A DNA stretch of 64,000 nucleotides from NCBI GenBank assembly GCA_038231455.1, contig JBBRLI010000002.1, positions 196,337 through 260,336 on the forward strand. Reading direction: 5' to 3'. Below, in pieces: positions 35,145-48,549 of this stretch (the first letter of the stretch is position 1; the number at the start of each line of letters is the position of its first letter). The stretch comes from Vulcanimicrobiales bacterium. GTDB lineage: Bacteria > Vulcanimicrobiota > Vulcanimicrobiia > Vulcanimicrobiales > Vulcanimicrobiaceae. The notes beneath the pieces are model-generated. The model was not told the DNA's origin and did no database searches. It was given only the letters and a program-made list of their open reading frames with translations. Both the position numbers and the translations under genes were made by a program.

Positions 35145-35216
35145 AGCCGACGGAGGGATTTGAACCCCCGACCCGCTGTTTACAAAACAGCCGCTCTACC
35201 CCTGAGCTACGTCGGC
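35145..35216 (-). tRNA. tRNA-Thr(TGT)
   Basis: Cloverleaf GCCGACG/CGTCGGC acceptor, anticodon arm GCTGT-TTTGTAA-ACAGC, GGTTCAAATCC T-arm; CCA not encoded. Confidence 0.96.
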
Positions 35217-35333
35217 ACGACGAGGCCTTTTCGCGAAAATGGACCCAAGCCCATCCCACTCGACGAAAGACATTCGTTCGCTTCGCCCAAGGAGACCGGC
35301 GTCTGTGAGGCGTACTGGATGGGCTGCCATCAT

Positions 35334-35418
35334 GGGTAGGTGGTCGAGTGGTTAAAGGCATTGGACTGTAAATCCAACGCGCTAACGCGCTACGCAGGTT
35401 CGAATCCTGCCCTGCCCA
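35334..35418 (+). tRNA. tRNA-Tyr(GTA)
   Basis: Anticodon arm TTGGA-CTGTAAA-TCCAA, long variable arm, GGTTCGAATCC. Confidence 0.96.
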
Positions 35419-35429
35419 GGTTGTAACGC

Positions 35430-35460
35430 AAACGCGCCGCGGAAACTCCGTGGCGCGTTT
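35430..35460. terminator. Bidirectional terminator between tRNA-Tyr and convergent gene
   Basis: AAACGCGCCGCGGA-AAC-TCCGTGGCGCGTTT. Confidence 0.75.
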
Positions 35461-35478
35461 GTCGTTTGTATCCGCCGA

Positions 35479-36600
35479 CTACGGTGTCTTGACGAAGCCT
35501 GCTGGGATATCGAAGAGCGTCGCGGCCGTGGCGTCGAGCGTTTTGAGATTTCCCCGCTCGGTCAAAAATCCGATCATGCTGGGCGTTCCGCTTGCTGCAG
35601 GTGCAGGCGACGCACCTCCGCCGGCGTTCATCGTTACGAGCGAGTAGAGCGGCAACTTTGCCGTCGGGACGGTGGGGCCGCTCTGGTGATTGGTGAACGT
35701 CGGGCGACAGCCGCCGGAAGATTGAGGCGGCGTCATCATATCGGTTGCGTTTTGTGGAATCGGAGCACGTCGCACCGGGCACGACGCGGCGCTCGGTCGA
35801 TTGAGCGCGGAATAATACGCGGTCGTTTTAATGGCAAACGAGCCGTCTTTGCAACTTCCGGTCGCGTTTGTTACGGCGACGGCCGCGGTCGAATCATAGC
35901 CGACGGTCGGGACGTTCTCGATGCGCTGCGATCCAAGTAATTTCGTTGTCGCGCTGAAATCGAAGTTCGCCGTGCCCGGTGCCGACGGTGCGCCGGCTGC
36001 CGGACCGCGCGCCTTACGCGGTTCCGGTGCGGACGGTTTTGCCGCAGTCATCGCTGCCTCGCTGTTCGGGTCGACGATCGCGTAGGTTTTCTTCGCAAGG
36101 TCGAGCGTGATGACTTGTCCGGCGTCGCACTTGCGAATCGTCGCGTTCTGCGCGGTGACGTCGTCGATGCGTTCCCAACCGTTGTAGTAGCTATAGCGCA
36201 GCAGATGCGGCGTGAGGAAACCGCGCATGGATGCCGCGAGTGCGCCGAATTGCGCGCCGAGTTGTGCGTCCATCGCGTTTCCGATCGCATTCGAGGCAGC
36301 GTCGCCGGCTAGGGCACCCGCCGCTCCATCCACTCCGCCGGTGAGAACGGCCGATGCGATATTGCCCAAGCTAAATCCGCGCTTCTTGGGAGCCGGAGTC
36401 GGGCTTGCGGCTGCGGCCGGGGCCGATAGCGCCGCAAGGTCGGTTTGAAAGCTGCCCGGCGGCGGCGGCGTTGCGTTGATGACAATGCGGACGATTTCAT
36501 CGTAGCTCAAGCCCGGCGTCGGTGCGGCGAACGGACGACTGGGCGCGAGAAGCACGAAGATTGCGATTGCACCGGTCAGACGAAGAAGCGAGCGTTTCAT
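35479..36600 (-). CDS. Secreted hypothetical protein
   Basis: ATG 36600 gives signal peptide MKRSLLRLTGAIAIFVLLA; ends LFDIPAGFVK (DUF4412-like tail). Confidence 0.75.
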   Translation of the reverse strand: MKRSLLRLTGAIAIFVLLAPSRPFAAPTPGLSYDEIVRIVINATPPPPGSFQTDLAALSAPAAAASPTPAPKKRGFSLGNIASAVLTGGVDGAAGALAGDAASNAIGNAMDAQLGAQFGALAASMRGFLTPHLLRYSYYNGWERIDDVTAQNATIRKCDAGQVITLDLAKKTYAIVDPNSEAAMTAAKPSAPEPRKARGPAAGAPSAPGTANFDFSATTKLLGSQRIENVPTVGYDSTAAVAVTNATGSCKDGSFAIKTTAYYSALNRPSAASCPVRRAPIPQNATDMMTPPQSSGGCRPTFTNHQSGPTVPTAKLPLYSLVTMNAGGGASPAPAASGTPSMIGFLTERGNLKTLDATAATLFDIPAGFVKTP

Positions 36601-36692
36601 GTTGGTCGCTTCCGCGAGCACGAGGGTCGCCCTCTTGGCCTGTGCGACGTCGGCAAGGGACACGCAGCGCCTTGCGGTAAGCAGAAGCGAGC

Positions 36693-36766
36693 GCGGGCGT
36701 TGCATAATGGTAATGCCCTTGCCTTCCAAGCAAGAGTCGCGGGTTCGATTCCCGCCGCCCGCTCCA
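36693..36766 (+). tRNA. tRNA-Gly(TCC)
   Basis: Anticodon arm CTTGC-CTTCCAA-GCAAG; encoded CCA. Confidence 0.96.
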
Positions 36767-36786
36767 CATTTATCCGCACGGTCCGC

Positions 36787-37311
36787 CTAAAGAAACGGCG
36801 GGCGTTTGCCCGAGGTGTTGTTGCAAAACAGCATGTGCTCGGCGTGGGGCACGTACCAGGCATGGATGTCGTAATGTGGCACCATCAATCCCTTATGGCC
36901 ATGCTTCTCGTACCAAATATCGATGTGATCGATTTTATAGCCCGGTAGCGGCTGGATCTCGTCGAGGTTGAAGCCGTCGTTGAACTGCTGCACGGTCGGC
37001 ATGTATTCGGTGAACGTTGCCTTGCCGTTGTAGTATCCGTAAATCGGACCGAACGGCCAGTCGGCGTCCTTCGCGTAGTGATAGCCCATTGAGGGGACGC
37101 AGCCACTTTCGGGAGAGAGCCCGAGCGGGAGTCCGGCGGGATCCTTCGGCCCCATCGTCATGAGCATTTTCATGATTTCCGGCGTCATGCCGGGCGGCAT
37201 CGGAGGAGGAGGCGAGGGCGGTGTCTGCGCGATCGCCAGACCTCCGGCGAGCGAAAGAGCCATCGCAACTCCCGCGACGACTTTAAGAATGGATCGGATC
37301 GAAAATCTCAT
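36787..37311 (-). CDS. Secreted Met/His-rich protein (DUF5602-like)
   Basis: ATG 37311, signal peptide, GCVPSMGYHY ... HGHKGLMVPHYDIH. Confidence 0.7.
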   Translation of the reverse strand: MRFSIRSILKVVAGVAMALSLAGGLAIAQTPPSPPPPMPPGMTPEIMKMLMTMGPKDPAGLPLGLSPESGCVPSMGYHYAKDADWPFGPIYGYYNGKATFTEYMPTVQQFNDGFNLDEIQPLPGYKIDHIDIWYEKHGHKGLMVPHYDIHAWYVPHAEHMLFCNNTSGKRPPFL

Positions 37312-37317
37312 GCGATG

Positions 37318-37350
37318 ATCGTAGGCGTCAGCCGTCCAAAGAGCGTCCAA
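37318..37350 (-). promoter_or_regulatory. Heptamer direct-repeat (SARP-type) promoter 1
   Basis: TTGGACG-N4-TTGGACG-N9-TACGAT-N6-ATG(37311). Confidence 0.65.
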
Positions 37351-37360
37351 GTCGCAAACA

Positions 37361-37600
37361 TCAGCGATCTCCGGATTGCGCGTCGTCCTCCGATTTGAGG
37401 CGATCGCGCTGTGCCGACTCTTGCAGCGCCAAACGTTCGTGCAAAGTGATGAACTCGCAGAGATCGCTAAGGTTGGAAAAGTAGCGCACGTTCGTCGAGC
37501 CAACGTGCAACGCACGGCCGCGCCAGTGGCCGGCGGAATCTTGCGCTTCACACCAGACGCGAACGACGAAGGACTCTTCAATTCGGACTTTGGGCGTCAT
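37361..37600 (-). CDS. Small hypothetical protein downstream of the BTAD/STAND regulator
   Basis: ESFVVRVWCE...WRGRALHV...YFSNLSDLCEFI; ATG 37600 (GTG 37609 alternative). Confidence 0.7.
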   Translation of the reverse strand: MTPKVRIEESFVVRVWCEAQDSAGHWRGRALHVGSTNVRYFSNLSDLCEFITLHERLALQESAQRDRLKSEDDAQSGDR

Positions 37601-37605
37601 GCCCG

Positions 37606-40600
37606 TCACGGTATCACCGCCGCGTCCAAGGCGCGTCCAAAGCGTCTCTCGAACGCGCGGCCGATTGCATCGTTGAACGGCAGCCAGCGATACATTGGCC
37701 GGGCCCCTTTGTCCGGAATCGTCGAAAGGCGGCGCTTGTATTCGGCGTACGCGCGCCGCAAAGCGTCCTGAGATTCTTCATCGCGTCCGAGCGCTCCGAG
37801 CAACGTACTCTTCACCCAGTCGAAGTACTGCGGAAACATCATCTGATCGACGTCATGCTGCTCGGCTTGCGCGAAGGTCTCGAGAACCGCCGCGGCACCT
37901 GTGAGGTCCGACGTGTCGAGGTACGCGAGGCCGAGATCGCACAGGTCCGCCAAGAGATCGGCGCCTTCGTTCAACGTTCGGCGAATTGCAATTCCTTCGG
38001 TCATATGCGCGATCCCCGCCGCGTACTGTCCCCGATCGCGTTCGGCGGCGCCGAGGTTTGCCAGCGCGTGGGCTTCGAGGGAACGGTTCGCCAGCGTTCG
38101 CGCAAGGCACAACGCCACGTGAGCACGTTCGGCAGCTGCGGTCGGATCGCCGAGATACAGCGAGCACAGTGACGAATTGAGTTCGCAGAGTAATTCGCCA
38201 CGCACATCCTTGAGCGACCGGAAGATCGGCTTTGCCGATTCATACGCGAGCAATGCGGCGCTGCAATCTCCGGTGAGCAGTCGCAACGTACCGACATTCA
38301 GAAAGACGACGGCCTCGCCTTGCTGCTTTCCAAGTGCGCGATAGAGTTCGGCTGCGGCGCGATAGTGCGTTTCTGCAAGCGTCACGTCGAACGCCCTTCC
38401 GATCGCCGCTCCAAGCCCGGCGTGCGCGTCGGCCGCGCCTTCTCGATCGCCGATGCGATCGAAGAGCGCGAGCAGTTGCGCTCCGGCGTCTCGAGCGCTA
38501 GTGAAGTTGCGTTCGTCCATTTCGAGCTTAACGGCTGCGCTTAGGACACGCGCCAAAAGAACCGTATCTGCTGTGAGGTTCGCAACCTCGCGCGCTGCCG
38601 CTAACTCGGCAGCCGCATCGTGATACCGGCCATCGCCGGAATACAGTTCGGCAAGCAGACAGTGCGACGTTCCACGATCGGTGAGGTCCGTGTCGGCCGA
38701 CTGCAACGCGAGTGCTCGACGCGCCGCCGTAATCGCAGGCGCGTTTTCGCCGAGAGCTTTGTGGTAGAGCGCACGCGCCACATGCCGCGCCGCCTCGAGC
38801 GACTCTTCGCTGTGGTCTTCTTGGAGCGCGTCCAGCTCGATAAGAGCCGCCGCTTCTTGCGCGCGGTCGCCCAGGCTATGGTGAAAGGCGATGCGTCGCA
38901 GCAGCAAGTTGGAGCGGACGCGCGTTACCTCGTCACCGGCAGCATCGCGTTCTAGGGCGGCTAGCTGTTCGGCCTGGGCGGTACGGTCACCGATTCGTGC
39001 GTAAAGACTTTCCAAGAGGAGCGACAATTCAATCCGCGTTGAGGCGTCCGTGCAGCCCGCAAGGCCGCGGCCGGCAAATTCCACGGCATCGCGATTGGCG
39101 AAGAGACGTTGTGCAGAGCGTGCAGCACGCAAGTAATACGGCGCCGCCGCTTCATTTTGACCCGCGTTTGCGAGATGAAACGCGATCTGTGGGGCGAGGT
39201 CGTCCAGCCGCGCCGGATAGAGCTCGCACAGTGCACGTGCAATGCGCCGGTGACGTCGTTTCTTCGTTGCGACGCTACATCGATCGTAGATCGCCGCGTG
39301 GATCAAGTGGTGGCCGAACGCAAAATCGGACGCCCCGACGGCCGATTCGCGAATCAGTTGACGGTCGAGCAACTCGTCCAGAGCATCGAGAAGCGCCGAC
39401 TCGTCCCATCCGCACACTTCTTTAAGCAGTTCGACATCGAAGTTTGCTCCGATGACGGCTGCGGCCTCGACGAGCGACTGCGCCCGTTCCGAAAGGCTCG
39501 CTGCGCGCTTGAGGATCCACGCCGGTATTCCATCGATCCCCGTACCGAGTGCGGTCGCGCCTTCGGCATGCGACCGCAACATCTCCGTGAGGAAGAACGG
39601 ATTGCCCTCACTGTCGGCAAACAGCTGCTCGGCAAGCTCTGGTACGCCCCGCGCCTTCGCGATCAACGCGACGGTGTCGCATGAGAGCGGACCAAGTGAG
39701 ACGTGTTTGGCGAAGCCCGGCTCTTCCAGCAGTCGTCGCAGCGCGCGCACCGGGTGCGCTCGCGAGACTTCTTCGTCGCGGTAGGAAATGACGATGAGAA
39801 GATGCGCTTCGGAGACGCGACGGGCGAGATAGCCGAGAAGATTCGCCGTACCGGTGCCGGCTAAATGGACGTCTTCGACGACGAGCAGAACGGGACGCGT
39901 CTTGGTGAGCTCGAGCAGCAACTGTGCTACCGCTTCGAAGAGGCGCAACTCCTCACGTCCCGGGGCGAGCGCCGGAAGCGTTTCAACGGGCGCCTTTCCA
40001 CGACGCAATTCCGGTAATAGCGCGGACAGCGATTCGTGCCACACGGGCGCGAGCTTCAGGTGCGGATAAAGAGGTATCGCCATGCGGAGAGCCTGCGATA
40101 CGGCGTCGTACGGTGAGGACTCGACCGCAGCCGCCGCCCCCATGAGAACTCGTGCGCCTTCCGCTTCCGCGAGGAGCGCCAATTCTGCGGCGATGCGGGA
40201 CTTGCCGATCCCCGCTTCACCGCTGAGAAGCACAACGTTGCCATGGCCGCGCGCGGCCTGCGACCATCGCGCGGTCAACAAGCTCAGGATTTCTTGCCGG
40301 CCGGTAAACGGTAGAACCGCAGATTTCGCGCGCTTATCGGTCTCCGTCATCGTGCCCGAACGTTCCAGCACCGAGGTGTTGCGTCGAATCGCTTCGTACG
40401 CGGCAACGGTTTCCGGCATCGGATCGAGGTCCATTTCCATACGCAATCGCTTCGCAAAGTCGAGGTACTCCGCGAGTGCGCCTGCGCGGTCGCCCAGCTC
40501 GAAACGCACGTTCATCGATTGCCGGATCGCATCCTCACGCCAAGAGTCGGCGCGCAACGCTTGCTGGATGTAGGTCAGCGCCCCTTTGAAATCACGCCGA

Positions 40601-41130
40601 CTCCGGTGTTCGAAAGCGAGCGCGTCGAGGTCTGCGATATACAGGAGTCGTAGTCGCTCGCGATACCGGAAGACCCACTCGTCGTGAACGGTGTCCATCA
40701 AATCGCCGGTATAGAGATGGACCGCATCGTCCAGCGACGCGGGCGACGCGCTGAGGCGTTCGAACTCCTCGACGTCGAACCAAAGCGGCACAAGCGGGTT
40801 CCACTGCACCGTCTTGCCATCGGCTACGATCACCGGCGGTTGATGCGACGACGGATTGAGGACGTGTTGAAGCTGTGAGAGGTGGCGGCGAAGGTTTGCG
40901 CGCGATTTCGCCTCGTCGTCGTCGGGCCAAAATACCGACGTGAGCTGCTCCCGGTCGACCGGCGCCTTGCGATTGAGCAAGAGATACCCGATCAAGGGAA
41001 ACGCTTTCGGCGGAGCAGTGAAACGCAACGGCACGTCGTCCAGCCAAAATCGCGCTTGGCCGAGGAGTGCAACACGGAGCGTCGGACGCGACGCTCGTCG
41101 CGGTGTCCTAGTGACGGATGATGTGATCAT
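37606..41130 (-). CDS. AfsR/SARP-like transcriptional regulator (wHTH-BTAD-STAND ATPase-TPR)
   Basis: N-terminal LLG...REQLTSVFWP..NLRRHL wHTH, BTAD (FDVEEF, LYTGDL), Walker A GEAGIGKS, Walker B LVVEDVH, TPR C-terminus; start approximate. Confidence 0.9.
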   Translation of the reverse strand: MITSSVTRTPRRASRPTLRVALLGQARFWLDDVPLRFTAPPKAFPLIGYLLLNRKAPVDREQLTSVFWPDDDEAKSRANLRRHLSQLQHVLNPSSHQPPVIVADGKTVQWNPLVPLWFDVEEFERLSASPASLDDAVHLYTGDLMDTVHDEWVFRYRERLRLLYIADLDALAFEHRSRRDFKGALTYIQQALRADSWREDAIRQSMNVRFELGDRAGALAEYLDFAKRLRMEMDLDPMPETVAAYEAIRRNTSVLERSGTMTETDKRAKSAVLPFTGRQEILSLLTARWSQAARGHGNVVLLSGEAGIGKSRIAAELALLAEAEGARVLMGAAAAVESSPYDAVSQALRMAIPLYPHLKLAPVWHESLSALLPELRRGKAPVETLPALAPGREELRLFEAVAQLLLELTKTRPVLLVVEDVHLAGTGTANLLGYLARRVSEAHLLIVISYRDEEVSRAHPVRALRRLLEEPGFAKHVSLGPLSCDTVALIAKARGVPELAEQLFADSEGNPFFLTEMLRSHAEGATALGTGIDGIPAWILKRAASLSERAQSLVEAAAVIGANFDVELLKEVCGWDESALLDALDELLDRQLIRESAVGASDFAFGHHLIHAAIYDRCSVATKKRRHRRIARALCELYPARLDDLAPQIAFHLANAGQNEAAAPYYLRAARSAQRLFANRDAVEFAGRGLAGCTDASTRIELSLLLESLYARIGDRTAQAEQLAALERDAAGDEVTRVRSNLLLRRIAFHHSLGDRAQEAAALIELDALQEDHSEESLEAARHVARALYHKALGENAPAITAARRALALQSADTDLTDRGTSHCLLAELYSGDGRYHDAAAELAAAREVANLTADTVLLARVLSAAVKLEMDERNFTSARDAGAQLLALFDRIGDREGAADAHAGLGAAIGRAFDVTLAETHYRAAAELYRALGKQQGEAVVFLNVGTLRLLTGDCSAALLAYESAKPIFRSLKDVRGELLCELNSSLCSLYLGDPTAAAERAHVALCLARTLANRSLEAHALANLGAAERDRGQYAAGIAHMTEGIAIRRTLNEGADLLADLCDLGLAYLDTSDLTGAAAVLETFAQAEQHDVDQMMFPQYFDWVKSTLLGALGRDEESQDALRRAYAEYKRRLSTIPDKGARPMYRWLPFNDAIGRAFERRFGRALDAAVIP
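37608..37640 (-). promoter_or_regulatory. Heptamer direct-repeat (SARP-type) promoter 2, inside regulator 3' end
   Basis: TTGGACG-N4-TTGGACG-N9-TACCGT-N7-ATG(37600). Confidence 0.6.
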
Positions 41131-41391
41131 CGGGCCGGCTTTCCGGGCGAAACCTGTTGCGGTTTTCGCGAGCGTGCGGCATATCCCGCTGCACGTTTCT
41201 TGGGGTGATTTGTAGCCCAGCCGGGCGCGAAACATCAGCTCGAGCGAAAAGTCGCGCGCCCACTGAATTGCGCGAGCCCACGGGGTTTGGCGACGCGATC
41301 TCCGGGGAAGTTCACAAGCAAGTTGAAGTGCGCTCGTACGTCTGGCGCAGATACGCGCGATTTCGCTACTCGCTCGACACCCGGGAGGCAT

Positions 41392-41832
41392 ATGGACCTA
41401 TCAGAAATGGTGAGGCGCTATCGGGCCCTTTGCCTCGCCGCTATCACCGTCGGCCTCCTGAGTGCGTGCGGTGGCGGCGGGTCGTCGTCTGGGACTTCGG
41501 CGCTGCCGTCCGCCCCAACGACAACGACGCCCTCGCCCGGCCCCACTCCCACGCCAAATTCGGGCATCGTGCTTACGCCGCCGACGATAACGTTGACCGC
41601 CCCGAACACCTACGTTTCGTTCACAGCCTCACAAACCGGAAACACCACGTTCACTGCGTCGTTTACCTGTAATAACAAGTCGACGCTTAGCCTGCAGTCG
41701 GGGACCAATCCCGGAGATTTCCGAATTGAAATCTTTGGTACGCCAATCGTGAAGACCGATGCCTGTCTTGTCACGGTGCTCGGCGCGAACAATCTCTCTG
41801 CCGTGGAGACGGTTAACGTCAGCGTTCCGTAG
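41392..41832 (+). CDS. Lipoprotein, hypothetical
   Basis: GGGAGG RBS; lipobox LSAC followed by GGGG and S/T/P linker. Confidence 0.7.
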   Translation: MDLSEMVRRYRALCLAAITVGLLSACGGGGSSSGTSALPSAPTTTTPSPGPTPTPNSGIVLTPPTITLTAPNTYVSFTASQTGNTTFTASFTCNNKSTLSLQSGTNPGDFRIEIFGTPIVKTDACLVTVLGANNLSAVETVNVSVP

Positions 41833-41835
41833 CGA

Positions 41836-42021
41836 CTAGGGTCCCGCGGGCGGGCGGCCGGTGATCGCGGACCACAGCGCGTTGATTCGCATACCCAAGG
41901 TCCGATCGCGTCGGTCTCCTTCGCGGCGGTCGATATCGACGGTGGCCTGCGTGGTCCGACGCTCGGCTCGCGCTCGTCGGTGACCTTCTTCGCGCTCTGC
42001 GGCAGTTTGCTCGAATTCCAT
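41836..42021 (-). CDS. Possible small hypothetical protein
   Basis: 61-aa ATG ORF with ERR/DRR repeats filling an intergenic gap; no other support. Confidence 0.35.
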   Translation of the reverse strand: MEFEQTAAEREEGHRRARAERRTTQATVDIDRREGDRRDRTLGMRINALWSAITGRPPAGP

Positions 42022-42259
42022 GTTTTTTGTTTATCGGCAAAACGCCGCAAACACTTAGTCGCCATTTTGGCATGGATGCAACCGGGCTCGCCGACGCCGA
42101 TGCGCCAGGGCGATGGAATGATGGCTACATCGATCCTCAGCATTCCAAAGCTTGCATTAAGGGGCTAGGCATGAGAGAGGATTCCGTATCGGCGACACGC
42201 CATGCTCGAGCTAAGGCCGCACGCTCGGCCGCGATCTCGCGCACTCTCGGGAAGGTGTT

Positions 42260-43726
42260 TTGATGAAGCGGACCCTGCTACGGATTGCTGCCGTCGGTCT
42301 TGTTGCCTCGCTCGTTGCATGCTCGGGCGGCGCGGCTTCCACGCCCACGATGATGCGAGATCCCGATCTTCTGGGCGTACCGCCGCCCGCGACGCAGCGC
42401 GGTACGCAGACGGCACGGCAAATCACGATTCCCGCATCGGCAAAACGCCGGACACAGTCGACGAACGTTTCGATTGGGGATCCCGGATTCGAGTCCGGCG
42501 GTTTCACGTCGTGGTCGCAGTGCGGTAACGTGAACGCAGCGATATCGACCACGCATGCACATTCGGGGACTTACGCGCAACGCAGCGGATCGACCAACGC
42601 TTCGACGGGTGAAATCAATGGTGATGCGGGCGTTTGCCAGGCCGTTGCAATTCCCGCAAGCGCGACGCTTTCGTTTTACGTGTATCCGCTCTCCAACGAG
42701 TCATCGACAACCTACTCGTATCAAGAAGCAGACTTGCTCGATTCGACCGGCGCGACCGTCAAACAGTTTTATGTTTCGGTATCGAATGCGGGCTCATGGA
42801 CGCTCAAGACATTCGATCTCTCCGCATACGCGGGCCAAACGCTGTATTTGTACTTTGGCGTCCACGGTGACGGCTACGCGAGCGCCTACACGATTCAGTA
42901 CGTCGATGATGTGACGATCACCGCGGCCGGCGGCACGCCGACGCCGACTCCGACTCCGCTTGCGACGCCAACTCCGGCTGTGACGCCGACACCTGGCGCG
43001 ACGGCGACACCAACGCCGATTGCAACGGCAACGCCGACACCCGGTGCAACGGCGACCCCGACGCCCAAGCCCACGGCATCGCCGACGCCCGTCGTGACGG
43101 CGACCCCAACCGCGACGCCGACCCCGGTGCCCACCCCAACGCCGGGAAGCGGCCCAACGCCAATCCCGCCCCCGAGCGGCGGCGGTGGTGCAACGTGCGG
43201 CATTCACTGCGGCACCGAGCGCTGGCACGTCAAAACCCTCGATGACCCGCAAGCATCGCAAGTAAACCGCACACCGCTCCTAACGACGGTCGACACGCTC
43301 GTTCACGCCGCGGTTCCCTCCGGCTTGAGCTCATCGTCCGACAACATCCGATTTGCGCCATGGGAATTGCAGACGGTAAAAGTCCGCGCCACGTTTGTGG
43401 GTTGGAAAACCGAAGCCGACAACGACTATCACGTGGTGATCGCCGACATGAATAACCCGGGCGAAACGATGATCATCGAACCGCCATCGCAGTCGTGTTC
43501 GGCAGCGTGCCAATCCGGCTATGGATCGCTGTTTCAAAGTTCGCGTGACGCGCTCGTTGCATGCTTTGGAAGTCCGCCGTCGTCGTTCACGGGATCCTCG
43601 AAAACCGTCGTTATGGATATCACGGGCGTGCCGCTATTCGATCTCTTACACGGTCAAACGGGCGTGGCTCCCAACGGCATCGAGATCCATCCGATCGTGA
43701 GCATTTCGTTCGTCTCTGGTTGTTGA
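42260..43726 (+). CDS. Modular lipoprotein: carbohydrate-binding-like domain, Pro/Thr linker, uncharacterised C-terminal domain
   Basis: Lipobox LVAC; DPGFESG...YVDDV jelly-roll pattern; long TPTP linker; CGTERWHVKT...IEIHP. Confidence 0.8.
   Translation: MMKRTLLRIAAVGLVASLVACSGGAASTPTMMRDPDLLGVPPPATQRGTQTARQITIPASAKRRTQSTNVSIGDPGFESGGFTSWSQCGNVNAAISTTHAHSGTYAQRSGSTNASTGEINGDAGVCQAVAIPASATLSFYVYPLSNESSTTYSYQEADLLDSTGATVKQFYVSVSNAGSWTLKTFDLSAYAGQTLYLYFGVHGDGYASAYTIQYVDDVTITAAGGTPTPTPTPLATPTPAVTPTPGATATPTPIATATPTPGATATPTPKPTASPTPVVTATPTATPTPVPTPTPGSGPTPIPPPSGGGGATCGIHCGTERWHVKTLDDPQASQVNRTPLLTTVDTLVHAAVPSGLSSSSDNIRFAPWELQTVKVRATFVGWKTEADNDYHVVIADMNNPGETMIIEPPSQSCSAACQSGYGSLFQSSRDALVACFGSPPSSFTGSSKTVVMDITGVPLFDLLHGQTGVAPNGIEIHPIVSISFVSGC
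42932..43172 (+). repeat. Low-complexity Pro/Thr linker-coding repeats
   Basis: Degenerate ACGCCG-type repeats encoding (A)TPTP units. Confidence 0.8.
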
Positions 43727-44247
43727 CCGCGCGAGGTGCTTTCGTGCTCGCGTTCGCGCTCGTCGCGAACGCGGGCTGTTCTCCAAAAGCCCCGGATCCG
43801 AGCGCTGCGGTAGCGCCGGTCCCGCTTGCGTCCGAGCGAGCGGCAGTCGCCGAACGTCTTGCCGCACGCGATCGTGACACGACCGCGACGCGGCGTCTTG
43901 CAAACGCACGCATTGCCGATGTGCGCGCACGCGATGTGACCCATCCAAACGATACGCGCGAACGGTTTCTCGTGATGATTCGCAATCGCGGGAACCGTCC
44001 GATCGAGAAGGTCGCAATTGGGATGACCCTCTTTGGGGAAGACCGTCATCGGCTCGGATTGACGGAGATCGAGATCGAGCGGCATATCGCGCCGGGTGCG
44101 ATGCAATCCGTGCCGGTCGAGGTGACTTTTCTGCTCTTTGCCGAGGGCGCACAACGGGTGCGCGCAGCCGCTGGCCGGCCGAAAGTCCTGGATGTCGATG
44201 TCAAAGACATCAGGCTCGCCGGGGCACCGGAGCACGATAGCGATTGA
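43723..44247 (+). CDS. Hypothetical lipoprotein
   Basis: TTG overlapping upstream TGA; hydrophobic stretch then NAGC. Confidence 0.55.
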   Translation: MTARGAFVLAFALVANAGCSPKAPDPSAAVAPVPLASERAAVAERLAARDRDTTATRRLANARIADVRARDVTHPNDTRERFLVMIRNRGNRPIEKVAIGMTLFGEDRHRLGLTEIEIERHIAPGAMQSVPVEVTFLLFAEGAQRVRAAAGRPKVLDVDVKDIRLAGAPEHDSD

Positions 44248-44280
44248 GGGACTGCCGGCATTATGCCGATAGATCCCTAG

Positions 44281-45402
44281 ATGGGTCGGATTTTCGTTTT
44301 GCTGGTGGCGATCTTGTTCTGCTGCGTCCAGCCAGCACGGGCGATTCCGCAATTTTCGCGACTAACAGGCGTCCATTGCGACGCGTGTCATAGCGCGCAG
44401 CGGGCGACGACCGACCTTGGCGACTTTTACCGCCGTAACGGTTTCCGGATGCCAAATCTTGGCATCCATAGCACCCCGCTCTTCTCGGTCATCGGGAGCG
44501 CGGGGACACATAGCGGCTCAGCGGCGCTTGGCACCTCGCCGCAACTCACCCAGAAACTGTACGCGTTCCTGACTGCGCGGCTGAGTCGTGAAGTCGTCGC
44601 GGGATACGAATATTATCACGCCCGCGACGGGCAGTTTTTCATCGACACCAATCAGCCGTTCGTACAATTTTCGACGCGCGGTTCGTTTGCCGGGTCTCCT
44701 ATCCGGGTGTTCGTCGGTTCGCCTGCGTTGCCGCTGCCGGTCGATACCGATGCGTATCGTCAAACGATCTCGCGCTATGCGATTTACGATCAAACCGTTG
44801 GCGTGAATCCGTTTAGTTTGAGCAGCGCGCGAAACGCCGCTTCGCTCGGCGTCGGCAGTCAAGTGCGCGGACCCAGCGCGACGCTCGTTGTCGCGCCGGG
44901 AGTCGATCAGCGCTCGAAGTTCGCGACGGCTGGTAGCGATCGGATGTTCGAAGCGCACGAGGCAGTCGGCGGTCTTGTGATCGGCGGTTACCAGTACACG
45001 GGAACGCGTGCAACCGGCAAGGTCTACGATGCGTTCGTGCGCCGTGCGATCGTGACCGATTATTATATCGGAAAGCTTGCGGTGGAGACGCTCGCGCAGA
45101 CCGGTTACAACAGTAGTCCCTTTGGCAACGGCGTCGGGGTGGCATCGAGCGGCGGCTACGCGCAACTGCGCTATCTCTTCCCAGAACGGATCAGCGCGAC
45201 CGCGCGCTACGACGGCGTTTCGCAATCGCGCGCCGGTGGATTTCGGCGGTCGCTCACGGTGAGCGCGTCGCGACCGATCGCGCATGGGTTGACCTTGCAG
45301 CTCGAAGACGTTGTACGCACCGCGCGTAAGACGACGCATACGCTCAACGTGCAAGTCGGCTTTGGTGTCGCCAACACGCGTGTTGGGTCGGCCGCCTACT
45401 AA
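44281..45402 (+). CDS. Monoheme cytochrome c fused to beta-barrel (Cyc2-like)
   Basis: Signal peptide then AIPQFSRLTGVHCDACH...G.FYRRNGF, followed by amphipathic beta strands. Confidence 0.7.
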   Translation: MGRIFVLLVAILFCCVQPARAIPQFSRLTGVHCDACHSAQRATTDLGDFYRRNGFRMPNLGIHSTPLFSVIGSAGTHSGSAALGTSPQLTQKLYAFLTARLSREVVAGYEYYHARDGQFFIDTNQPFVQFSTRGSFAGSPIRVFVGSPALPLPVDTDAYRQTISRYAIYDQTVGVNPFSLSSARNAASLGVGSQVRGPSATLVVAPGVDQRSKFATAGSDRMFEAHEAVGGLVIGGYQYTGTRATGKVYDAFVRRAIVTDYYIGKLAVETLAQTGYNSSPFGNGVGVASSGGYAQLRYLFPERISATARYDGVSQSRAGGFRRSLTVSASRPIAHGLTLQLEDVVRTARKTTHTLNVQVGFGVANTRVGSAAY

Positions 45403-45605
45403 CCGATCTTTGCGTTTTTGAGGGCGAGCAGGACGGGCTCTGCGATCGCCTCGCAGCAAAGCTGGAGTTGGAAGGCATAGGTTCCGTCCTCGCAGCGTGC
45501 GGCGCCGGGTACAGCGCGCGGGTGGTTCGAGCAGCGCACGTCTTTGAGCGCGGCGTCGATCGCATCGGCGACCAAGACGCCTTCGTGAATCTCGGGTTCG
45601 GGCAT
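45399..45605 (-). CDS. Small Cys-containing hypothetical protein
   Basis: 68-aa ATG ORF, VRCSNH...LCCE. Confidence 0.5.
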   Translation of the reverse strand: MPEPEIHEGVLVADAIDAALKDVRCSNHPRAVPGAARCEDGTYAFQLQLCCEAIAEPVLLALKNAKIG

Positions 45606-45775
45606 GCTTAACGAATTGTCCTTAATTTATGAATTGGCAATTGCGACAGAGCCAACATGCTGGCACACCGCTCAACTAGCTTATGATCATGGCTCAATTG
45701 GATTCAGGCAACGGTTTCGCAGGTGTGTCGTTTTTGATAACCGATAATCCAGATGAGCCCACGCCGACCTCTAAA

Positions 45776-46183
45776 GTGAGGCGGGACACGAAGAGTGTCG
45801 GAGACCGATCGGAAGCAGAGGTCATACCGGCGTTGATTCGAAACGGGTTTTCGGTTTCAATTCCATTTGGTGAAAATCACCCCTACGACCTACTTGCAGA
45901 CGATGGCTCCAAGATTCATCGCATCCAAGTCAAAACAGGTCGACTCCTCGCATCAGGTTCGATCGTCTTCAATTGCTACAGCAGCCACCTCCATCGCGGT
46001 GGGCCTTGCCGATCGTACTTGGGTGAGGTAGAATATATCGCGGTGTACTGCCCCCAGCTTCACAAGGTATACCTTATCCCAGAATCGGACATCACCCGAA
46101 CCCAAGCGTACCTTCGGGTCTTGCCCGCGCGCAATTGTCAAAACAGGAAGTTGCGTTGGGCTGTGGATTACGAGCTGCTGTAG
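45776..46183 (+). CDS. PD-(D/E)XK endonuclease (group I intron-associated/I-Ssp6803I-like family)
   Basis: TKSVGDRSE, VSIPFGENHPYDLL, RIQVKTGR, VYCP...VYLIP; likely GTG start 45776 (ORF open from 45683); visibly lower GC than flanks. Confidence 0.85.
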   Translation: MRRDTKSVGDRSEAEVIPALIRNGFSVSIPFGENHPYDLLADDGSKIHRIQVKTGRLLASGSIVFNCYSSHLHRGGPCRSYLGEVEYIAVYCPQLHKVYLIPESDITRTQAYLRVLPARNCQNRKLRWAVDYELL

Positions 46184-46245
46184 CTTAGTGGTAAAGCATG
46201 TCATTGGTAATGACAAGAGCGTCGGTTCAATCCCGACCAGCAGCT
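46174..46245 (+). tRNA. tRNA-Thr(GGT)
   Basis: GCTGCTG/CAGCAGC acceptor, TGTCA-TTGGTAA-TGACA anticodon arm; CCA not encoded. Confidence 0.95.
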
Positions 46246-46250
46246 GATTT

Positions 46251-46283
46251 GAAAAAGAGGGACCGCTCGGTCTCTCTTTTTTC
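46251..46283 (+). terminator. Terminator after tRNA-Thr(GGT)
   Basis: GAAAAAGAGGGACCG-CT-CGGTCTCTCTTTTTTC. Confidence 0.75.
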
Positions 46284-46327
46284 TTGCCTTCGTCCAGCAT
46301 GGCTAAGATCGTCCTTAGGGAAGTCCA

Positions 46328-47287
46328 ATGAGCACTATGATGACGACGACAACCACGCCGACGATGGCCACGCCGCGGACCGCGCTCTTCGAGGGTCTGA
46401 TCGACGATGCGGGGCTCTTCCCGCCCGCGCAACTCGCAATGGATGCTGCGCTCAAAGAAAATGCAAAGAACCGCGCTGCGACGTTCAAGTGGGTCATGGG
46501 CCGCTTCGTCGTTCCCGCCTCGCGCCTCGACGAACTCGCAAGCGCCAAAGGGAGCGCGACGACGCCGCTGCGTCTGACGGTGATTCTCGATGGTCCGGGC
46601 CTTGCTCCGCGGTGGATCGATGGCGTGCGTTCGGATGTCGAGCGCGCCTACAATGTTGGCAAAGCGAATGCTGATGCACTCCTCATCGAATCGTTCGAAG
46701 TGCGTCTCCCGCCGACCGCCGATGCCGCGCTCGTCGCCGATCTGTGCAGCACGGTTGCCGAACGCTTTCCGCAGCCGTCGATCGCAGTAGAAATTCCGTT
46801 CGCCAAAACGTGGGCGATCGCGCCGTCGATCGCCTTCCCGATGCTGCGCGATGCACGCAAAAACTCACCGCACTTGATTGCAAAACTGCGCTGCGGCGGC
46901 ACGGTCGCCGATGCGTTTCCGAATGCAACGCAGCTCGCAAATGCCATCGCCGAAGCACATAAGAACGGCGTACCGTTCAAGGCGACGGCCGGTCTGCATC
47001 ACCCGCTGCGTTCGCAAGACGGGGCGTTCGAGATGCACGGCTTTCTCAACGTCATCACCGCGGCGCTTTCGGTTGCGGTCGGTGCAAGCGAAGCGGAGCT
47101 CGCCGCGATTCTCGAAGAAGAAGATCGTAAAGGCTTCCGCCTCGACGACACCTACTTCATCTGGCGCCGCCGCCGCTTCGATACGGCCGCGATCGAAACG
47201 ATGCGCCGCACGGCGTTCCTTTCGTTCGGCAGCTGCAGCTTCAGCGAACCCATCAACGACCTGTTGCACGCCGGCTTCTTGGTATGA
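46328..47287 (+). CDS. Uncharacterised protein coupled to fahA
   Basis: LIDDAGLFPPA, KLRCGG, PFKATAGLHHPLR, HGFLNV, SFGSCSFSEP. Confidence 0.8.
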   Translation: MSTMMTTTTTPTMATPRTALFEGLIDDAGLFPPAQLAMDAALKENAKNRAATFKWVMGRFVVPASRLDELASAKGSATTPLRLTVILDGPGLAPRWIDGVRSDVERAYNVGKANADALLIESFEVRLPPTADAALVADLCSTVAERFPQPSIAVEIPFAKTWAIAPSIAFPMLRDARKNSPHLIAKLRCGGTVADAFPNATQLANAIAEAHKNGVPFKATAGLHHPLRSQDGAFEMHGFLNVITAALSVAVGASEAELAAILEEEDRKGFRLDDTYFIWRRRRFDTAAIETMRRTAFLSFGSCSFSEPINDLLHAGFLV

Positions 47288-48549
47288 CCTCGGCGTCGCA
47301 GCGGCGGCGCAGTTGGATCCCCATCGCCGACGACTCGGATTTTCCGCTGGAGAATTTGCCGGTCGGCGTCGCCTGCAATGGGAGTGACCCGCATGTCGTC
47401 GTAGCGATCGGCGAGCGGGTCGTCGATCTTGCGCATCTCGCGCGCAGCGGTTCGCTCGAGGGAATTGCAGCCGATGCGCAGGCGCTTTTTGCGGCGCCGA
47501 CGTGCAACGCGTTTCTTGCAAGCGGTCGCGCGACGTGGTCGGCGCTGCGCGCACGATTGACGCACCTGTTTTCAAACGATGCAACCGTCATCGAACGAGC
47601 GGCGGTCGAGCGCGCGTTCGTTCGCGATCCGCAGATGCTTTTGCCGATCGAGGTTGCGGACTACGTCGACTTCTATTCCTCGATCGAGCATGCGACGAAT
47701 CTCGGGCGCATCTTGCGTCCCGGGGGCGAACCGCTGCTGCCGAACTACCGTCACATCCCGATCGGCTATCACGGGCGGGCCAGCACCGTCGTTGCGAGCG
47801 GAACGCACGTGCGCCGGCCAAGCGGTCAGACGAAGTCTCCGGCGAGCGACACGCCGACGTTCGGGCCGTCGCGGCTGCTGGATTTCGAACTCGAAGTCGG
47901 CTTCATCACCGGCCCCGGCAACGTCCACGGCGATCCGATTCCGACGGCAAACGCGCGCGACCATATCTACGGTCTCGTGCTCCTCAACGATTGGAGCGCA
48001 CGCGACATTCAAGGCTGGGAATACCAGCCGCTCGGACCGTTTCTCTCAAAATCGTTCGCGACATCGATTTCGCCTTGGATCGTCTCGCTTGACGCGCTCG
48101 AACCGTTTCGCGTGTCGAACCGCGTGCAGGATCCAGCGCCGCTCCCGTATTTACAGGTCGCCGAGCGGTGGGCGTACGACATCGACCTCGAGGTCGAACT
48201 GCAAACGATGGCGATGCGCGAACGCGGCGAATCGCCAACGCGCATCACGCGCACGACGTTCTCACAAATGTATTGGAACATGGCGCAGCAGCTCGCGCAT
48301 ATGACGATCAACGGCTCGCGCGTGCGCACCGGAGATCTTTACGGCTCCGGGACCGTGAGCGGCACGCAGCCCGGCACGTACGGCAGCATGATCGAACTGA
48401 CCGAACGCGGCGCGCGTCCGCTCGTGCTTCCGGACGGCGAACAACGCGCATTTCTCAATGATGGGGATACCGTGGTGATGCGCGGCTCGGCATCACACGA
48501 CGGGTTACGCATTGGCTTCGGTGAGGTTCGCGGAACCATTCTGTCGTGA
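47284..48549 (+). CDS. fahA: Fumarylacetoacetase
   Basis: DFPLENLP, DYVDFYSSIEHATN, PIGYHGRAS, LDFELE, NDWSARDIQ.WEYQPLGPF. Confidence 0.95.
   Translation: MTSASQRRRSWIPIADDSDFPLENLPVGVACNGSDPHVVVAIGERVVDLAHLARSGSLEGIAADAQALFAAPTCNAFLASGRATWSALRARLTHLFSNDATVIERAAVERAFVRDPQMLLPIEVADYVDFYSSIEHATNLGRILRPGGEPLLPNYRHIPIGYHGRASTVVASGTHVRRPSGQTKSPASDTPTFGPSRLLDFELEVGFITGPGNVHGDPIPTANARDHIYGLVLLNDWSARDIQGWEYQPLGPFLSKSFATSISPWIVSLDALEPFRVSNRVQDPAPLPYLQVAERWAYDIDLEVELQTMAMRERGESPTRITRTTFSQMYWNMAQQLAHMTINGSRVRTGDLYGSGTVSGTQPGTYGSMIELTERGARPLVLPDGEQRAFLNDGDTVVMRGSASHDGLRIGFGEVRGTILS

Follow-up and report, generated by a model that had tools for sequence, protein, structure and literature searches.

A probable free-standing homing endonuclease gene of the I-Ssp6803I family that ends inside tRNA-Thr(GGU) in a member of the Vulcanimicrobiota

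To our knowledge, homing endonucleases with the restriction-enzyme fold are represented in print by a single studied enzyme, the intron-borne I-Ssp6803I. Its gene lies in the group I intron of the Synechocystis tRNA-fMet gene. The enzyme is described as a tetramer that binds a 23-bp pseudo-palindromic site (PMC3384342). A survey published in 2012 found the corresponding Pfam family, PF11645 (PDDEXK_5), to be patchy in its distribution, which suggested horizontal transfer (PMC3424549), and intron-less homing by free-standing genes is described in a review of bacterial group I introns (PMC3984707). SegB of phage T4 is such a free-standing homing endonuclease; it is encoded in a tRNA cluster and its site includes a conserved tRNA motif (PMC2330249). 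Here we analyze a 64,000-nt stretch of DNA (positions 196,337 to 260,336 of contig JBBRLI010000002.1, assembly GCA_038231455.1; hereafter the window) from a Vulcanimicrobiales bacterium known from a metagenome-assembled genome. Our subject is a nuclease gene that overlaps the 5′ end of the tRNA-Thr(GGT) gene of this genome. An earlier note, made from the letters of the window, had proposed that the gene is an intron-independent selfish element positioned at the 5′ end of the tRNA. Our results make it probable that it is indeed an intact free-standing homing endonuclease gene of the I-Ssp6803I/PDDEXK_5 family, living at tRNA gene borders and, in this genome, located 5′ of the only tRNA-Thr(GGU). 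This reading draws on the PF11645 match, the association of the family with tRNA genes, the patchy distribution, the presence of empty and decayed sites and the absence of an intron from the tRNA.

I-Ssp6803I and the window protein have PF11645 and the D...QxK active-site motif in common, both are tied to a tRNA gene, and I-Ssp6803I provides the best fold match, although sequence identity between the two is only about 20%. They differ in placement and in host. I-Ssp6803I is encoded within an intron, whereas the window gene lies outside the tRNA and overlaps the 5′ end of tRNA-Thr(GGU). The host phylum of the latter is Vulcanimicrobiota, whereas the close homologues of I-Ssp6803I are described as generally cyanobacterial (PMC3384342). 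The best functional analogue is T4 SegB, likewise a free-standing nuclease gene among tRNA genes; however, SegB has the GIY-YIG fold and is phage-borne, and the abstract of its description mentions no coding overlap with a tRNA (PMC2330249). In addition, SegB is a working nuclease, whereas the window protein is a predicted one. A full-text literature search, with subscription journals and supplements outside its scope, found no report of PF11645 members that flank or overlap tRNA genes.

The assignment of the protein to this family is supported by profile, motif and fold comparisons. The open reading frame (ORF), its TAG codon and the PYD and IQVK motifs (residues 67–69 and 81–84, respectively) are all located as the earlier note had claimed, and the profile search which that note had recommended gave a match to PF11645 with 117.5 bits (E = 5.8e-34) against a cut-off of 26.1. 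The alignment covers residues 35–165, corresponding to profile positions 2–137 of 138, and therefore the full domain. Y68, D69, Q82 and K84 are invariant across 35 aligned relatives; we take D69, Q82 and K84 to be the equivalents of the I-Ssp6803I catalytic residues. The sole match by sequence in the PDB is the I-Ssp6803I structure 2OST (E = 0.003), with the YD and QVK motifs aligned. An AlphaFold2 model built with the 35 relatives as input has a mean pLDDT (predicted local distance difference test) of 87.3, with residues 1–34 modeled at low confidence and predicted to be disordered. When the model was compared with PDB structures, the four chains of 2OST occupied ranks 1–4 (E = 3e-9 to 2.6e-7; template modeling scores 0.62/0.69), followed by archaeal Hjc resolvases, SPARDA nuclease domains and EcoRV. 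By these sequence and model comparisons, the protein appears to be an active I-Ssp6803I-type enzyme. It is encoded by the only PF11645 gene of the host assembly, and among relatives the nuclease is always a lone gene without partner genes. The protein also matches phrog_5018 of the PHROG database (E = 2.5e-17), a group whose function is not known. Membership in a defense system was considered and rejected, as the defense library PADLOC returned a single, weak match named 'homing endonuclease' (E = 0.0037) and no NCBIfam profile matched the protein. The G+C content of the region is 0.52 (45550–46299) compared to 0.57–0.66 on either side (about 0.62), in line with the lower G+C content noticed earlier.

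The adjacent tRNA-Thr(GGT) is intact and uninterrupted, just as had been claimed. It is matched over its full length by the Rfam tRNA model (73.7 bits) and features a 7-bp acceptor stem and a U73 discriminator. ARAGORN places the gene at 46173–46246, that is, one base to the left of the Rfam register; the latter is followed here for both coordinates and numbering. Among 46 tRNA genes of the host assembly this is the single tRNA-Thr(GGT). In the Rfam register, the 10-nt overlap between the ORF and the tRNA, with the stop codon inside the tRNA, is upheld: tRNA nucleotide 1 is the third base of codon 164, nucleotides 2–7 encode Leu165 and Leu166, and U8-A9-G10 forms the TAG stop. Residue 165, although encoded within the tRNA, still aligns to profile position 137 of PF11645. 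The possibility that the locus is a remnant of a group I intron was also explored. An Rfam scan of positions 44500–47500 (E ≤ 1) detected no group I intron and no other family save one sub-threshold chance match. Since no intron model matched and the tRNA is uninterrupted, an intron remnant was rejected; the gene does not reside inside a self-splicing intron of its target, as does that of I-Ssp6803I. As a side observation, CCA is not encoded in tRNA-Thr(GGT) of the host genus (the window, at 46245–46249, and locus L004), but is encoded in nearly all relatives of the family.

The proximity to a tRNA gene turned out to be a property of the homologues in general. In a scan that considered one genome per species we obtained 138 relatives and analyzed the best 80 of them. 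These come from Vulcanimicrobiota, Actinomycetota (Gaiellaceae, Solirubrobacterales), Chloroflexota (Ktedonobacteraceae), two giant sulfur bacteria and a planctomycete. A tRNA gene is found within 100 nt of 76 of the 80 genomic relatives, representing at least four phyla, and within 12 nt of 34, whereas a random 500-nt gene in the host genome has only a 0.96% chance of lying within 100 nt of a tRNA. The 80 loci do not count as independent cases, whereas the more than 12 distinct combinations of tRNA and orientation do. The most common arrangements are a same-strand position 5′ of tRNA-Thr(GGT) (24 loci), divergence from tRNA-Thr(TGT) (25 loci) and convergence on the 3′ end of tRNA-Lys or tRNA-Thr, mostly flush with it (16 loci). 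Two genes of the Solirubrobacterales type read into tRNA-Thr(TGT) and end on its U8-A9-G10, and a few adjoin tRNA-Asn, Ala or Arg. The same holds for viral contigs, where 28 of 31 relatives are at most 100 nt away from a tRNA, inside phage tRNA arrays. Seven of the 31 end 10–11 nt into a tRNA (tRNA-Thr, tRNA-Asn or tRNA-Val); in viral loci L169, L178 and L188 the ORF runs into tRNA-Thr(GGT), the tRNA sequences being unlike the bacterial one. The recurrence of ORFs that run into tRNAs indicates a pattern beyond chance. Thus, the positional association of homologues with tRNA genes, which the earlier note had put forward as a check, is strong. In one well-supported nuclease clade of Solirubrobacterales-type relatives, L076 and L115 share the strand of tRNA-Thr(TGT) and enter this tRNA at its 5′ end, while L078 and L088 abut the 3′ end on the opposite strand, showing that the side and the orientation relative to the tRNA can change among close relatives. 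The neighboring tRNAs in genomes, mostly tRNA-Thr, Lys, Asn and Arg(CCT), read ANN codons, as does tRNA-fMet; however, a link to ANN codons was rejected, because viral neighbors include tRNA-Asp, Gln, Pro, Gly, Cys, Val and others, and three genomic relatives are located beside tRNA-Ala.

If the gene were a mobile element, related genomes should differ in its presence at the same site, and this is what we found in the host family, surveyed as Baltobacteraceae (Vulcanimicrobiota). Searches with the protein as a query detected matches in seven of 36 other family genomes and in none of 24 genomes of two sister families. In a wider draw of 61 family genomes, PF11645 was found in 11 and was missing from 50. 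All eight loci of the protein-query survey have the nuclease adjoining tRNA-Thr(GGT); in six of them the frame is closed by the in-tRNA TAG, and four display the order tRNA-Tyr, tRNA-Gly(TCC), nuclease, tRNA-Thr(GGT). For the survey of empty sites, the tRNA was searched for in 61 genomes, and 28 fetched loci were scanned. Fourteen nuclease-free loci, four of which (L024, L030, L035 and L038) come from unpublished genomes, have a spacer of just 4–33 nt between tRNA-Gly and tRNA-Thr(GGT), and in three further nuclease-free loci the spacer is 58, 84 and 177 nt. In occupied sites, the distance between the two tRNAs is 513–560 nt in nine loci and larger in six others. Relatives thus differ by the presence or absence of a single-gene insert at one homologous site, and the empty alleles expected by the earlier note do exist. 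Judging from the spacer lengths, the element amounts to one gene, about 0.5 kb long, in place of the inter-tRNA spacer.

In addition to intact and empty sites, several loci harbor decayed copies. The copy in L008 (genome G012) is missing its N-terminus and has a stop 43 nt before the tRNA, and L009 (G014) holds a 79-residue fragment with the neighboring tRNA on the opposite strand. In L012 (G068) only about 35 C-terminal codons are left, still ending on the tRNA TAG. The 177-nt spacer of L039 (G024) is devoid of an ORF, yet it matches the 5′ leader of occupied loci at 19 of 23 positions and their 3′ tail at 25 of 28; judging by these matches, it is probably the scar of an internal deletion. 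These four loci together with the scattered carriers described below bear the signs of a cycle of invasion, decay and loss.

We next consider the distribution of the gene on a species tree. RpoB was chosen as the species marker because the genes 3′ of tRNA-Thr differ between genera. The tree is based on a central RpoB segment and includes 45 of the 61 genomes; the six unpublished genomes were omitted, as were those that yielded no usable segment (G002, G024, G027, G030, G036, G062, G070, G073, G082 and G084). The 11 carriers of an intact, decayed or partial gene require nine changes on this tree, at least six of them forced by well-supported branches. Shuffled labels require a mean of 10.0 changes, with 139 of 500 shuffles requiring no more than the real ones, which means that carriers are scattered about as expected by chance. 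Some carriers have nuclease-free sisters, for example, in pairs G017/G069 and G008/G006. Being present in 11 of 61 family genomes and scattered among them, the gene is not vertically conserved, in agreement with the reading of the earlier note. Gain, decay and loss are well supported by these sequence comparisons, whereas horizontal movement within the family is no more than possible.

The comparison of the window with its congener G001, which also carries the nuclease, illustrates why. The flanks of the two loci are 82–93% identical, but the identity within the cassette (~45606 to 46160) is 30–70%, and the leader is the exact point where it drops from ~85% to 30–50%. RpoB proteins of the two genomes are 98% identical, nucleases only 51–52%. 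The proportion of synonymous differences (pS) in the nuclease is 0.70 compared to 0.45–0.50 in three flanking genes, a figure that derives from 153 codons of low G+C content and is close to saturation, a limit that weakens its support for a mobile cassette. The nonsynonymous divergence (dN) is 0.41 versus 0.03–0.10 in flanking genes, with the synonymous divergence (dS) of the nuclease about 2, i.e. saturated, and dN/dS below 1. On this evidence, the window and G001 could hold different nuclease lineages. Several other observations likewise weigh against mobility. The approximately unbiased (AU) test leaves the sisterhood of the window and congener nucleases unrejected (p = 0.49), for which reason allele replacement in the congener was dropped, and their divergence may reflect a fast G001 branch (0.97 vs 0.32). 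In the nuclease tree (74 sequences; broken or partial L051, L061, L065, L069, L070, L079 and L099 left out) all Vulcanimicrobiota nucleases form one clade with a support of 90 in the Shimodaira–Hasegawa-like approximate likelihood ratio test (SH-aLRT), and clades follow the phylum and the tRNA target. A single ancient entry with subsequent descent and repeated loss therefore also fits the pattern. Near-identical nucleases in clearly unrelated hosts were not found; the close pairs that were checked have alignable flanks and so provide no evidence of recent transfer. Of the sequencing runs listed for positions 45400–46700, none is of RNA. The one DNA run containing the locus, probably from the source sample, covers the window contig at a depth of 12.8 and has neither a nuclease-free variant contig nor a joint that skips the nuclease, but this run is silent on expression and on absence. 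The frameshifted nuclease of L013 (G075) is possibly an assembly artifact; since rpoB in the 8-contig assembly of G075 is also split over several frames, the break may be an assembly error, and L013 was not counted as decay. Finally, the window protein is, like its close relatives, a predicted homing endonuclease.

The tRNA next to the nuclease proved to be of interest in its own right. In 53 distinct tRNA-Thr(GGT) sequences of the family, positions 13, 22 and 46, which make up the classical 13-22-46 base triple, covary perfectly, being either C-G-G or T-A-A. The T13-A22-A46 variant is present in 21 of 30 tRNAs located beside an intact, decayed or partial nuclease, but in only two of 23 without the nuclease, four of these 23 sequences coming from unpublished genomes; the ordinary C13-G22-G46 is found in nine of the 30 nuclease-linked tRNAs. 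Similarly, G47 occurs in 18 of 30 nuclease-linked tRNAs and in none of the 23 nuclease-free ones. Mapped onto an RpoB tree of 28 genomes, the allele requires eight changes, the same number as the nuclease. In phylogenetically independent pairs the allele goes with the nuclease in 2.9 cases on average and against it in 0.1, although there are only four independent pairs on supported branches and the median sign-test p is 0.25. The link between the allele and the nuclease is real as a count; it may stem from co-conversion, from a tRNA copy that travels with the nuclease, or from target-site immunity. In the most specific version of the last idea, the target of the enzyme would be the D-arm DNA of tRNA-Thr(GGU), which is a palindrome located 10–25 nt from the insertion point, and carriers would escape self-cutting through the C-G-G to U-A-A swap at positions 13-22-46. 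Such a swap would alter both half-sites symmetrically while keeping the tRNA functional. We regard this as quite unlikely, but if it were true, a selfish nuclease would be the force behind compensated changes at the core of an essential tRNA. The idea that T13-A22 generally marks tRNAs adjoining the nuclease was rejected, as this variant was not seen outside Vulcanimicrobiota. Separately, the 4-69 pair is G4-C69 in all 30 nuclease-linked tRNA-Thr(GGT) and C4-G69 in 10 of the 23 nuclease-free ones; the C4-type loci belong to a 12-genome RpoB clade without any nuclease gene. From the sequences, C4-G69 may represent plain phylogeny or a resistant target.

How do these data bear on alternative explanations? 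The observations on descent would be expected if the nuclease were a resident host gene, either domesticated or used in defense, which is inherited vertically, frequently lost and not mobile. The single clade within the phylum, and vertical descent that is not rejected within the genus, agree with this idea, and so do ORFs and catalytic residues that have stayed intact across copies 40–60% identical to each other, implying purifying selection on the protein, as well as dN/dS below 1 in the comparison with the congener. However, a resident gene sits poorly with the absence from most family genomes, with clean empty sites, several decayed copies and low G+C content. Nor does a host function receive support from a lone gene without partners, without an NCBIfam match and with a defense-library match only to a 'homing endonuclease', or from the occurrence of the same family inside phage tRNA arrays. 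Taken together, we consider a resident gene very unlikely. In contrast, the locus fits a free-standing homing endonuclease. The ancestral state in the family is a tight cluster of tRNA-Tyr, tRNA-Gly, a short spacer and tRNA-Thr(GGU), with the ~0.5 kb cassette replacing the spacer. We infer that the enzyme cuts nuclease-free copies of the locus, in or beside the tRNA gene, that the cassette is then copied in by recombinational repair using the conserved tRNA genes as homology arms, and that lineages cycle through gain, decay and loss. A variant of this scheme makes the mobile unit larger: the nuclease would travel with its own cut-resistant tRNA-Thr, which would overwrite the resident tRNA. The perfectly covarying allele, its enrichment next to the nuclease along with G47, the equal numbers of changes, the balance of independent pairs and the ORFs running into tRNA-Thr(GGT) in phage arrays are all in its favor. 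On the other hand, acceptor stems track the host clade and not the nuclease, GCTG-type stems being found in both carriers and non-carriers of the RpoB clade of the window. Moreover, three pairs of sister nucleases (L042/L049, L052/L066 and L043/L047) are located beside different tRNA alleles, nearly a third of nuclease-linked tRNAs have the ordinary triple, and both the number of independent pairs and the share of unpublished genomes temper the statistics. This larger unit is therefore possible, but we find it rather doubtful.

A separate question is whether the stop codon within the tRNA has been selected for. In 15 of 24 Vulcanimicrobiota relatives the stop is the tRNA TAG (U8-A9-G10), and in the other nine it lies 1–52 nt before the tRNA. 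Most copies have a non-conserved tail of 20–27 residues between the domain and the tRNA. A subgroup comprising the window, L040, L041, L043 and L045 lacks the tail, so that the acceptor stem doubles as coding sequence for the final conserved residues of the domain, and all five members end on U8-A9-G10. L054 and L060 have near-identical nucleases, of which one runs into the tRNA while the other stops 52 nt short of it. Since the in-tRNA stop is common but not obligatory, it is most likely a by-product of compaction, whereby a frame without its own stop runs to the first fixed one, the near-invariant U8-A9-G10 of the tRNA. Alternatively, the arrangement might be a selected control. If the transcript starts 5′ of the ORF, the cut by ribonuclease P (RNase P) at 46174 would produce a stop-less nuclease mRNA, a substrate for transfer-messenger RNA (tmRNA), as would be expected from the known action of RNase P and of trans-translation, and the toxic nuclease would be kept low; removal of the stop codon by RNase P had been proposed in the earlier note. 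Consistent with such control, a divergent gene on one side and a terminator on the other enclose the ORF and the tRNA as a single unit, and any promoter 5′ of the ORF must therefore read through both. This tRNA-Thr(GGT) is the only one in the genome, and a full-length tmRNA gene is present (G000:C1:188208-188562; 104.4 bits with Infernal/Rfam; missed by ARAGORN). The U8-A9-G10 ends in the majority of Vulcanimicrobiota relatives, in two of the Solirubrobacterales type, in seven of 31 viral ones and throughout the tail-less subgroup point in the same direction. Against it stand the nine relatives that stop short of the tRNA, the different ends of L054 and L060, and bridging tails that are not conserved as protein. 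Furthermore, tRNA function dictates U8 and G10, and a frame that enters in this phase is therefore bound to stop there, and a promoter-like site within the ORF (46006–46034) could serve the tRNA alone. We therefore view a control device as unlikely and compaction as the better explanation of the in-tRNA stop.

Overall, our results show members of PF11645 outside introns, positioned against tRNA genes in several bacterial phyla and in phage arrays, and even sharing nucleotides with the tRNA. The empty sites, the patchiness on the RpoB tree and the 13-22-46 allele link, the last of which is new here, were all measured for one bacterial family. The locus exists in occupied, empty and decayed forms, natural material for studying how tRNA genes are chosen as targets, and the 13-22-46 swap is a testable candidate for target-site immunity. 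The locus also represents a simple system for following the fate of an mRNA that loses its stop codon when a tRNA is processed. Relatives of the nuclease may supply new enzymes with long recognition sites.

The features of the locus are collected in Table 1. The hairpin that closes the nuclease/tRNA unit has 14 bp and a folding energy of -18.9 kcal/mol (z = -4.1; none of 200 shuffles as stable), is followed by a U-rich stretch and is kept in the congener, supporting the terminator proposed earlier; a simple scan for consensus terminators did not flag it. The leader contains an imperfect 14-nt palindrome (45651–45664) and a promoter-like site (45660–45687; 9 of 12 consensus positions matched); this site and the one inside the ORF are consensus matches only. 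At the equivalent position, a better-formed palindrome was detected by a pattern search in 15 of 25 Vulcanimicrobiota loci (L042, L046, L049, L050, L052–L056, L058, L059, L061, L063, L065 and L066), and four more with one degenerate arm were recognized by eye. It is composed of two arms of 5–6 nt around a 2–4-nt centre and lies ~40–60 nt 5′ of the nuclease start, directly after tRNA-Gly. Going by its sequence, the palindrome may serve as an autoregulatory operator or form a hairpin in RNA; it resembles the tRNA D-arm only weakly.

Table 1. Features of the nuclease/tRNA-Thr(GGT) locus and its surroundings, in window coordinates
Feature	Position	Strand	Source
PD-(D/E)XK nuclease ORF, 166 aa, ATG start, TAG at 46181-46183	45683..46183	+	six-frame ORF list and sequence
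tRNA-Thr(GGT), intact, no intron, no encoded CCA, T13-A22-A46(G47) core variant	46174..46245	+	Rfam tRNA model
ORF/tRNA overlap, 10 nt	46174..46183	+	sequence, ORF list, Rfam register
Terminator-like hairpin closing the nuclease/tRNA unit	46251..46282	+	fold energy
A+T-richer leader, 77 nt, between the divergent conserved small gene and the nuclease ORF	45606..45682	+	sequence
Conserved small gene, divergent to the nuclease	45399-45605	-	–
Remainder of ancestral tRNA cluster: tRNA-Thr(TGT) (minus strand), tRNA-Tyr, tRNA-Gly(TCC)	35145..36766	.	ARAGORN

In the window, the tRNA cluster is split at two places. A minus-strand gene with a signal-peptide-like start (35420–36692; 1.3 kb) separates tRNA-Tyr from tRNA-Gly, and about 9 kb of accessory genes (36767–45605), including one for a 1261-residue BTAD/AAA_16/TPR regulator, lie between tRNA-Gly and the nuclease. 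In the congener, the DNA 5′ of the conserved small gene differs from that of the window.

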